Positions 49,066-56,769 of a DNA stretch of 64,000 nt are shown piece after piece. The DNA is taken from positions 1-64,000 of the forward strand of contig MEZH01000001.1 of the NCBI GenBank assembly GCA_001775995.1, written 5' to 3'. The DNA comes from Candidatus Bathyarchaeota archaeon RBG_16_48_13 (lineage in GTDB: Archaea; Thermoproteota; Bathyarchaeia; RBG-16-48-13). Numbering within the stretch: the stretch's first letter is position 1; each line of letters begins with the position of its first letter. Both the position numbers and the translations under genes were made by a program. A model generated the notes under the pieces. That model made no database searches. It saw nothing but the letters and a program-made list of their open reading frames with translations, and was not told where the DNA came from.

Positions 49066-49185
49066 ACATGAGAGAACAGATTCAGCAAACCTTTTAAATT
49101 GTTCGCATCCATCACACAACTTACTCTGGACCAGAAAGCGTAGAAACGTTTTCTGGCAAATAGTGTGTGCCGAGGGGCCTTATAG

Positions 49186-49319
49186 GCCGGGGTTGGTCTC
49201 CGACTACCGAAAGCTCAGCCTGGTTAGATGAGTGACCTCAAACCAAAGCGCCAGACCTCTCTATGAGAGGAGCGTTACTCATAATCTGGAGATCGTGGGT
49301 TCGAAACCCACCCTCGGCT
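49186..49319 (+). tRNA. Elongator tRNA-Met(CAT), introns at 8/9 (18 nt, 49194-49211), 22/23 (19 nt, 49228-49246) and 30/31 (22 nt, 49255-49276)
   Basis: Removing the three BHB-like inserts gives GCCGGGGTAGCTCAGCCTGGTTAGAGCGCCAGACTCATAATCTGGAGATCGTGGGTTCGAAACCCACCCTCGGC. Confidence 0.85.
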
Positions 49320-49324
49320 TTACT

Positions 49325-50850: not shown

Positions 50851-50882
50851 CTTCTTGAATGTCAAATGTGCCCCGGCATCGA

Positions 50883-51016
50883 GCCTCGGTACCCAAACCT
50901 TGGGCGAGAGAGCTCAGCATGGTCAGATGCCTTGAGTGCGAAGGCGGGCTAAAGCGCCAGCTTGGTATCCATCAACAAAGAGCTGTAGGTCGCGGGTCCG
51001 AATCCCGCCCGGGGCT
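50883..51016 (+). tRNA. tRNA-Thr(GGT), introns at 8/9 (20 nt, 50891-50910), 22/23 (26 nt, 50927-50952) and 37/38 (13 nt, 50968-50980); CCA encoded
   Basis: 8/9 intron has a strict BHB (GAGC/GCTC, CTCG/CGAG, CCCAA/TTGGG); 22/23 central helix GGTC/GGCT. Confidence 0.88.
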
Positions 51017-51389
51017 CCAAGATTTTCCACTTTAATTATGAAGGAAAAAAAGGAAGAATAATGATCACATGCCCGTGGAAGGGCACAATACCCGAAAAAG
51101 GCTATTCGTAACTACTTTTTCTTTGGTTTTGCTTTTGCTTTCTTCTTGGACATTATAGAGTTCTCCGACTCGATAATTTTGTAGCTTTTAGAATAAAAAA
51201 CTTTACATCGAGAAACTGGCCCTAAACCAATTCGAAGAAGAGTTTGGAACCAAACCGCACCTTAGACGCATTCTGGAGCGGTATTTGGAAGCTGTTATTT
51301 CATAGAAAAAATTTAAAGACTCGTTTTGAGTCAATTAAGCGCCTTTATAGAGGAAACTCGTCTTTAAGACTTCACAATGAGGAACCTAA

Positions 51390-56237: not shown

Positions 56238-56300
56238 AGATGACTAATTTGTGAAAGATCATCACGCATGCGATGCAAGCTTTCTCGCATGTAATTGTAG

Positions 56301-56445
56301 CGGGCCCGACGGGAATTGAACCCGTGACCCCCGGATTTCTTCTTTTCTCATTAAAAGTTTCACCGAAGCGCCATTTTCAGGCGACCTCTCCGATGCTCTT
56401 CCTAGCTGAGCCTCCCGGCCGAAACAAAGATCGGCTTACGGGCCC
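56301..56445 (-). tRNA. tRNA-Lys(TTT), introns at 9/10 (25 nt, 56412-56436), 30/31 (31 nt, 56359-56389) and 37/38 (15 nt, 56337-56351)
   Basis: 9/10 strict BHB (GGG/CTC, CCCG/CGGG, GCCGA/TCGGC); 30/31 central helix CATC/GGTG; G73. Confidence 0.88.
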
Positions 56446-56481
56446 ATGGACCCGCTAAGAAGCTTTCTCAAACGGAATCTT

Positions 56482-56530
56482 CCTAATAACTTTTCCTCTT
56501 CCATTTGTTATAGTAAAAATTTAAATAAAA
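56482..56530. promoter_or_regulatory. Divergent BRE/TATA-like promoters for tRNA-Lys (minus) and tRNA-Asp (plus)
   Basis: Minus strand GAAAAGTTATTAG about 27-33 nt upstream of 56455; plus strand TTTAAATA at 56520-56527. Confidence 0.5.
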
Positions 56531-56553
56531 ACTGCTCATTCAATGTGATGGAA

Positions 56554-56680
56554 GCCCTGGTAGTATAGCCCGGCCTAGTATGTGCGGCTGAACCCGAAAA
56601 AAGGGTAGCCGAATCACCCGCACGACCCGGGTTCAAATCCCGGCCAAAGGAAAGAAAAGAATCTTTCCTACCGAAGGGCG
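56554..56680 (+). tRNA. tRNA-Asp(GTC), introns at 34/35 (23 nt, 56591-56613) and 68/69 (29 nt, 56647-56675); CCA encoded
   Basis: Removing both gives GCCCTGG/CCAGGGC acceptor, G73, TGCGG/CCGCA stem and loop CTGTCAC. Confidence 0.85.
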
Positions 56681-56769
56681 CCACACTTTGATAGTGCCGG
56701 GGCTTCGCCATTCCATCAATTGACCGGTTGTCATTTTTATAAGCTCCAAGAGCGATAGATCATTTCCAG

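Follow-up and report, generated by a model that had tools for sequence, protein, structure and literature searches.

How can a tRNA precursor present a splice motif that takes up strands of its own acceptor stem and T-stem? So far it has been unclear how a weak 4-bp bulge-helix-bulge (BHB) motif prevails over a 7-bp acceptor stem together with a 5-bp T-stem. The question is raised by a tRNA-Asp locus in the window, that is, the whole 64,000-nucleotide stretch of DNA of Candidatus Bathyarchaeota archaeon RBG_16_48_13 that was analysed, in which one intron interrupts the anticodon (site 34/35) and another interrupts the 3' strand of the acceptor stem (site 68/69). Pairing between the tRNA and its flanks offers a testable answer. 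Taking the account as a whole, we consider it likely that the locus is a functional tRNA-Asp(GUC) gene with two BHB introns and that its trailer serves as a surrogate pairing partner, splicing and the helper role of the trailer being inferred in the absence of any RNA or biochemical evidence. The trailer is the new part of the finding; the gene and its introns are ordinary for the clade.

Joined by coordinate with a script, the exons (Table 1) yield an RNA of 78 nt, for which ARAGORN returns a tRNA-Asp(gtc) without a flaw in any stem. The GUC anticodon, the discriminator G73, C38 and the G10-U25 pair are identity elements for AspRS, and all of them are present in the spliced molecule. The end of exon 1 is marked independently by intron-free tRNA-Asp contigs from other organisms, which part from the locus directly after 56590 and read on TCACCCG. 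The locus itself recurs on metagenome contigs from two independent studies, one of them identical and one lacking a single A of the intron-1 loop, and a search of the assembly (849 kb, 75% complete) revealed no other Asp-like gene. That the locus is a real archaeal tRNA-Asp gene is well supported, with its splicing inferred and no RNA data at hand; we regard it as an ordinary multi-intron archaeal tRNA for its clade, because relatives share both intron sites, and the changes in their intron helices compensate one another. The promoter is assigned by inference, from the distance at which archaeal promoters usually lie.

Table 1. Features of the tRNA-Asp locus and its flanks, in coordinates of the window
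Feature	Position	Strand	Content, pairing or basis
Second TATA-box-like candidate	56508-56515	+	would give a leader of ~16 nt
TATA-box-like TTTAAATA	56520-56527	+	read from sequence; predicted transcript start ~3-5 nt before the tRNA
Leader TCAAT-G-TGATGGAA	56540-56553	+	complementary to distal trailer
Exon 1, tRNA positions 1-34	56554-56590	+	5' acceptor strand, D-arm, 5' anticodon stem, C32 U33 G34
Intron 1, 23 nt, site 34/35 inside the anticodon	56591-56613	+	sequence; same-site introns in G004, G057, G062
Intron 1 outer helix GTG/CAC	56582-56584 / 56615-56617	+	sequence
Intron 1 central helix CGGC/GCCG	56585-56588 / 56608-56611	+	sequence
Intron 1 3-nt bulges TGA, AAT	56589-56591, 56612-56614	+	sequence
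Intron 1 inner helix ACCC/GGGT	56592-56595 / 56603-56606	+	sequence
Exon 2, positions 35-68	56614-56646	+	U35 C36, 3' anticodon stem, variable loop, T-arm, C66 C67 A68
Intron 2, 29 nt, site 68/69 in the 3' acceptor strand	56647-56675	+	sequence, pairing, same-site relatives
Intron 2 outer helix CC/GG (C61-C62 with G70-G71)	56639-56640 / 56677-56678	+	sequence
Intron 2 central helix CGGC/ACCG, 3 pairs and a C.A mismatch	56641-56644 / 56670-56673	+	sequence
Intron 2 bulges CAA, AAG	56645-56647, 56674-56676	+	sequence
Intron 2 inner helix, 8 bp, AGGAAAGA/TCTTTCCT	56648-56655 / 56662-56669	+	sequence, pairing
Exon 3 = GGGC (G69-C72), discriminator G73, encoded CCA	56676-56683	+	spliced cloverleaf
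Putative surrogate strand ATAGTG-CCGGGGC-TTC	56691-56706	+	pairs with leader -3..-1, acceptor 1-7 (U5.G wobble), 8-13
Distal trailer: bulge with GCCA, then TTCCATCA, ATTGA	56707-56723	+	pairs with leader 56540-56553
First T5 run 3' of the gene, likely archaeal terminator	56734-56738	+	downstream of the surrogate strand

Both junctions are BHB motifs, each in a slightly relaxed form, as borne out by the canonical tRNA that ARAGORN recovers upon removal of the introns and by covarying intron helices at the same sites in relatives. At intron 1, one additional unpaired A (56607), which the relatives lack, lies between the inner and central helices; cuts after the second base of each bulge join CUG to UCAC and restore the GUC anticodon. 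At intron 2, the 5' side of the central helix, CGGC, consists of the 3' strand of the T-stem plus C66, and the opposing ACCG is unique to this tRNA-Asp, GCCG being present in 45/45 environmental genes and in eight other genomes. The ACCG is identical in the independent contigs from two other studies. In addition, an 8/9 intron in the tRNA-Met of the same genome likewise ends in ACCGAA, with a mismatch at the same position, and the C.A mismatch is possibly a habit tolerated in this lineage. Removal of the 68/69 intron is itself inferred, without RNA data. As a separate observation, the 5' junction of intron 1, TGAACCCG (56589-56596), is a perfect 8-bp complement of CGGGTTCA (56628-56635), which comprises the 5' strand of the T-stem plus T-loop; TGAACCCG also resembles TTGAACCCGGGT, a trailer element of relatives. 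It might conceivably hold the 5' half of the T-arm during cutting of intron 2, with about 0.5 chance matches of such length expected in the region.

Across 23 genomes of the same order, tRNA-Asp introns form a mosaic. The 68/69 intron is found in the genome under study, in G004, G009, G010, G017, G002, G012 and G015, and in G046 from another family, that is, in 9 of ~401 genomes sampled in the class, and a metagenome scan added 65 further loci, representing 45 distinct genes. In the relatives the intron has a strict, invariant form, CGGC/CAA ... GCCG/AN/G-GGCGCCA (slashes divide the segments), around inner helices that vary with compensating changes, and GGGCGCCA stands directly after the intron in all nine genome relatives. 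GGGCG is present in all 68/69-intron genes found, but the search pattern demanded it; CCA follows it in all nine genome genes and in nearly all of the metagenome genes. The 34/35 intron, for which relatives were searched at the family level, was seen in only four genomes (the one under study, G004, G057 and G062), with G057 and G062 belonging to another family of the class and with inner helices of ATCC/GGAT in G004 and ACCGG/CCGGT in G057. G004, of the same order, carries a T-loop intron in its tRNA-Asp in addition to those at 34/35 and 68/69. Of the 45 metagenome genes, 23 carry a 37/38-type intron and none a 34/35 intron. The combination of 34/35 and 68/69 introns is uncommon, and neither site is among the positions given in the text of a 2014 review (PMC4090602), fuller position catalogues lying outside this comparison.

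In default mode ARAGORN made no call at the unspliced locus, and with its intron option it reported a tRNA-Val(gac) at 56554-56651; the Rfam tRNA model reached 29.2 bits against a 29-bit threshold, in permissive mode only. Genes of such build are missed or mislabelled (here as Val-GAC), so that MAGs of the clade seem to be without tRNA-Asp and other tRNAs. The first-pass annotation, made from the sequence alone, had warned that the gene could be scored as a missing tRNA-Asp, and this held, as did its description of the elements between 56540 and 56723, all of which are in place. Its reading of a tRNA-Asp with introns at 34/35 and 68/69, with the real 3' end at the upstream GGGC-G-CCA and the similar strand in the trailer as a decoy, is supported by the spliced cloverleaf, the BHB geometry, the same-site relatives and the invariant GGGCGCCA. 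It had called both intron positions rare, a fair statement in view of the genome counts (9 of ~401 for 68/69, four for 34/35), and the check that it proposed, for another tRNA-Asp(GTC) elsewhere in the genome, turned up none in the 75%-complete assembly.

Downstream of the gene, the trailer is complementary to the leader and to the first positions of the tRNA. A repeat search found 56551-56566 to be 81% complementary to 56691-56706 over 16 nt and 56546-56553 to be complementary to 56711-56718 at 8/8 positions, with TCAAT/ATTGA lengthening the pairing; the leader-trailer helix contains a 1-nt bulge and a 7-nt bulge. The duplex of the trailer with the leader plus positions 1-13 has a modelled energy of -32.7 kcal/mol, compared with -14.5 +/- 3.1 kcal/mol for shuffled trailers (z -5.8), and 0/2000 shuffled trailers matched it; a separate test of the surrogate strand gave z -4.4. 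The pairing runs on into leader sequence that is not part of the tRNA, through GAA/TTC in this gene and GGA/TCC in G009. The first T4 run lies at +54, versus a median of about +21 in genes without a 68/69 intron, and the trailers of 68/69-intron genes remain free of T4 runs for a longer stretch; transcription of the trailer is nevertheless inferred from sequence, no RNA data being available. That the trailer pairs with the leader and the 5' strand had been recognized in the first-pass annotation, and this held, although the extent was understated, as the pairing reaches positions 8-13. The further claim that the decoy lacks G73-CCA held in part: the next base is T, but a GCCA follows 3 nt downstream (56707-56710). 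No function had been assigned to the decoy, for which the comparative data suggest an inferred role as a helper.

We propose the following course of events, all of which is inferred. The locus would be a functional gene for the tRNA-Asp(GUC) of an uncultured archaeon, and its primary transcript would contain two short BHB introns, at 34/35 and 68/69, which the archaeal splicing endonuclease EndA would cut, with RtcB joining the exons; the tRNA ends would then be made by RNase P and 3' trimming. Formation of the 68/69 BHB would take the 3' strand of the T-stem (positions 61-66) and G70-G71, melting both the T-stem and the acceptor stem and leaving the 5' acceptor strand and the 5' strand of the T-stem without partners. 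The trailer may act as a surrogate partner, for the leader and positions 1-13 in this gene and for positions 46-58, or for both regions, in most relatives. Such surrogate pairing would make the splice-competent fold cheaper and prevent the BHB from losing out to the acceptor stem. Once the introns are spliced out, the acceptor and T helices would form without interruption and the trailer would be trimmed off.

The link between trailer and intron is shown by comparison. A 7-mer resembling a 3' acceptor strand lies 8-25 nt past G73 in 9/9 genome genes with the 68/69 intron, and it forms 5-7 of 7 pairs with GCCCUGG, versus 4-5/7 at best in 13 genes that lack this intron. In most metagenome trailers there is an element, TTGAACCYGGGT(C), that exactly reverse-complements positions 46-58, the 5' strand of the T-stem and the 5' half of the T-loop; 4-6 nt beyond this element there is often AGGGCGC(C) or CCAGGGCGCC, a complement of the 5' acceptor strand. 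Since unpaired bases of the T-loop are among those that it complements, the T-arm-type element cannot be a mere copy of a tRNA 3' end. The gene under study represents the acceptor type, G010, G002, G012 and G015 the T-arm type and G046 an intermediate; as exceptions, the trailer of G017 is weak and in G010 a T4 run precedes the element. Among 46 distinct environmental genes with the 68/69 intron, z was below -2 against the T-arm 5' half in 78%, against the leader plus acceptor strand in 35% and against either target in 96%, versus 0/13 genes without the intron, in which mean z was -0.16 (T-arm 5' half) and +0.18 (leader plus acceptor strand). Mann-Whitney comparisons of genes with and without the intron gave p 7e-8 and 2e-5; the compared sequences are related, so that these and the other p-values given here overstate their independence. 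Variants of the T-arm-type element show 27 C-to-T or A-to-G changes, which keep a G.U pair, versus 10 other changes at C and A positions, a count that is partly biased by ascertainment in that windows were picked by pairing quality. Moreover, trailer elements are kept across at least six families in which neighbouring trailer sequence cannot be aligned, and the strands with which they pair are exactly the two freed when the BHB takes positions 61-66 and 70-71. That the trailer helps in splicing is inferred from these sequences, without RNA data.

The modelled cost of the splice-competent fold was obtained by forcing the 68/69 BHB and comparing ensemble free energies. For this tRNA-Asp the BHB costs 9.9 kcal/mol without a trailer, about 7.0 kcal/mol with shuffled trailers and 4.6 kcal/mol with the real one, and the corresponding means for 46 environmental genes are 7.7, 7.2 and 4.4 kcal/mol. 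The real trailer was the cheaper one in 44/46 environmental genes (Wilcoxon p 9e-12). Even with the trailer, the BHB fold is still modelled 3.5-5 kcal/mol above the ensemble, a minority state in the equilibrium model. Under the same folding model, six tRNAs with 5'-side introns showed no clear advantage of real over shuffled leaders, a fraction of 0.07-0.77 of the shuffled leaders doing equally well; these leaders help in comparison with a 4-nt leader, but no support is gained from this test.

Copies of acceptor strands in flanking sequence are not confined to tRNA-Asp. In a census of the same genome, a flank copy of the acceptor strand used by the BHB accompanies 7/7 tRNAs with an acceptor-adjacent intron (Met 8/9, Thr-GGU 8/9, Lys 9/10, Ser 8/9, Asn 8/9, Tyr 10/11 and Asp 68/69, the Tyr isotype being a provisional ARAGORN call) versus 1/22 others (Fisher p 5e-6), and in all seven it lies at a distance of 5-13 nt. 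The exception is tRNA-Gly(GCC) (C7:103271-103384), whose sole intron is near the anticodon and whose leader copy, GCGGTTG, 11 nt upstream of the 5' end, may be a relic of a lost intron or due to chance. In G010, copies are found at iMet (7/8 intron, two tandem copies), Cys (9/10) and Met (8/9) and at 0/8 ordinary tRNAs examined; those of iMet (L062, G010:C50:900-1320) are two perfect tandem leader repeats, AGCGGGGAAT, of its own 5' acceptor strand. The tRNA-Asp of G046 has a 6/7 intron beside the one at 68/69, and its leader element pairs over 10 bp with CCAGGGCGCC. A tRNA-Pro with a 70/71 intron in G004 gave only a weak trailer match (z -0.9).

Several of these genes lie in the window. The tRNA-Lys(UUU) gene (56301-56457, minus strand) is divergent from tRNA-Asp and carries a strict-BHB intron at 9/10 and at least one more intron near the anticodon, with an Rfam score of only 24.9 bits. 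Its leader element TAGCGGGTCC (56448-56457) forms 10 bp with a stretch (GGGCCCGCTA) made up of 3' acceptor strand, G73 and trailer, so that the helix, TAGCGGGTCC with GGGCCCGCUA, reaches the opposite flank; none of the tRNA-Lys relatives in the order has the 9/10 intron, and the leader copy is absent from them too. At tRNA-Thr(GGU) (50870-51019, plus strand), which has a strict-BHB intron at 8/9, the leader GCCCCGG (50870-50876) complements the 3' strand CCGGGGC at every position; pairing of that strand with the real 5' strand, GCCTCGG, includes a wobble. The tRNA-Met(CAU) gene (49169-49320, plus strand), found by neither ARAGORN nor Rfam, has about three introns (8/9, about 26/27 and 31/32) and the leader copy GCCGAGG (49169-49175). 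Here the decoy follows the 3' strand, as GCCGAGG/CCTCGGC in this genome and GCCGGAG/CTCCGGC in G010, and in this comparison the real 5' strand retains a wobble pair. Positions 56300-56342, the conserved T-arm and 3' end of tRNA-Lys, showed a very high summed contig depth in all four metagenome runs; this peak is no copy-number signal, because many organisms have this stretch in common.

The main rival to a trailer that assists folding holds that the trailer and leader copies are neutral leftovers, stemming from a partial duplication of a tRNA end or from the attachment site of an integrated element and co-inherited with the intron from one ancestral allele. In its favour, a copy of a 3' strand is complementary to the 5' strand by definition, several trailers have the look of degenerate 3' ends (ATCCC..CAGGGCTCCA in G009, CCAGGGCGCC in environmental genes), the tandem AGCGGGGAAT repeats at the iMet gene of G010 resemble recent duplications and the tRNA-Gly(GCC) copy occurs without an acceptor-adjacent intron. 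The idea would also explain a possible origin of the copies. However, TTGAACCYGGGT, the element met most often, reverse-complements positions 46-58, T-loop bases included, and is no direct 3'-end copy, and the pairing enters the opposite, non-tRNA flank, over 10 bp at tRNA-Lys, over 10 bp at the G046 leader and in the leader of tRNA-Asp. Furthermore, the elements persist in at least six families amid unalignable trailer sequence, their substitutions are biased towards retention of G.U pairs, seven different tRNAs of the same genome each have their own matching copy, and the effect on modelled energies would go unexplained. On balance, we regard neutral leftovers as an unlikely explanation.

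Readings in which the locus itself is something else fare worse, and we consider them very unlikely. It could be a decaying pseudogene, with the real tRNA-Asp in the unassembled quarter of the genome: the mismatch in the 68/69 central helix is unique to this gene, intron 1 has an extra bulged A, and the genome is 75% complete. Yet the cloverleaf formed by the exons has no defect and ends in G73 and CCA, and neither intron hairpin is broken. Contigs of two other studies carry the same sequence, down to the ACCG, the tRNA-Met 8/9 intron shares ACCGAA and the position of the mismatch, maybe a tolerated habit, and no second Asp gene was found in the assembly. Alternatively, the leader-trailer helix might be a processing stem of the kind known from rRNA or permuted tRNAs, which EndA would cut so as to release the tRNA or make it circular, or CCGGGGC might be the true 3' acceptor strand, with a 56-nt intron at 65/66. 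A long leader-trailer helix does exist, and ARAGORN accepts the alternative join as a tRNA-Asp too. The helix, however, lacks a pair of 3-nt bulges spaced by 4 bp, and the alternative 3' end would have U73, a U5.G68 wobble and no CCA directly after it; in addition, GGGCGCCA is kept in the nine genome relatives, whereas the decoy is variable or gives way to a T-arm complement.

Some other origins were considered and rejected. A target-site duplication would not account for the flank copies, as the order is copy, spacer, real strand, intron, and the intron is not flanked by copies. A split or permuted tRNA is excluded by exons that are colinear in one 130-nt gene and by a leader-trailer helix that forms no BHB. 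An integrase attachment-site duplicate was dismissed on the repeats alone, in view of a repeat 13 nt past CCA with nothing integrated between and of homologous trailers that are mostly reverse complements of positions 46-58 and not direct copies.

The surrogate-partner reading can be set beside known systems. Multi-intron archaeal tRNAs of Thermoproteales and other Thermoproteota (Marck & Grosjean 2003; Sugahara 2007/2008; reviewed in PMC4090602 and PMC4033280) likewise have short helix-bulge-helix-bulge-helix introns, up to three per gene, in lineages with two EndA paralogues that suggest a broad-specificity heterotetramer, and their precursors likewise must quit the cloverleaf fold to present the motif; they differ in that 34/35 and 68/69 are outside the list in the review's text and that surrogate strands in the flanks are undescribed in the papers searched. 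Split tRNAs (Nanoarchaeum equitans, Caldivirga) and permuted tRNAs (Cyanidioschyzon merolae, Thermofilum) share leader-trailer pairing in the splicing substrate. Their flank helix, however, adjoins and builds the BHB that is cut, whereas the tRNA-Asp gene is colinear and its flank pairs with strands freed by the BHB, away from the cut sites and without a BHB of its own. In the ordered removal of BHB introns (tRNAscan-SE 2.0, PMC8450103; C. merolae, PMC3728597) competing folds likewise determine which motif forms first, but there the introns compete with one another, without a dedicated flanking element.

A search of the open-access literature found no description of flank-encoded surrogate strands accompanying introns near the acceptor stem. 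A bolder reading is that such strands are a general, as yet undescribed, cis-acting folding device, for and against which we find the case about evenly poised; under this reading no archaeal BHB intron could settle in or beside the acceptor stem or the T-arm unless leader or trailer offers the freed strand another partner. If that is true, flank sequence would be predictable from intron position, and the flank would govern if an intron is removed and which one goes first. A rule by which the intron site predicts a flank complement could sharpen intron finders and bears on the sites of intron gain.

As for the processing enzymes, RNase P RNA is encoded in the genome under study, and no PF01974 match for EndA was found in its 75%-complete assembly, including the tRNA-Asp contig. 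EndA is encoded by 22/22 of the order's remaining genomes, in most of them by two paralogous genes, which fits a broad-specificity heterotetramer (PMC4090602, PMC4033280). In seven relatives (G012:C1, G015:C27, G017:C12, G002:C38, G004:C11, G010:C4 and G005:C9), the distance between the tRNA-Asp gene and one of the two EndA paralogues is 1-7 kb.
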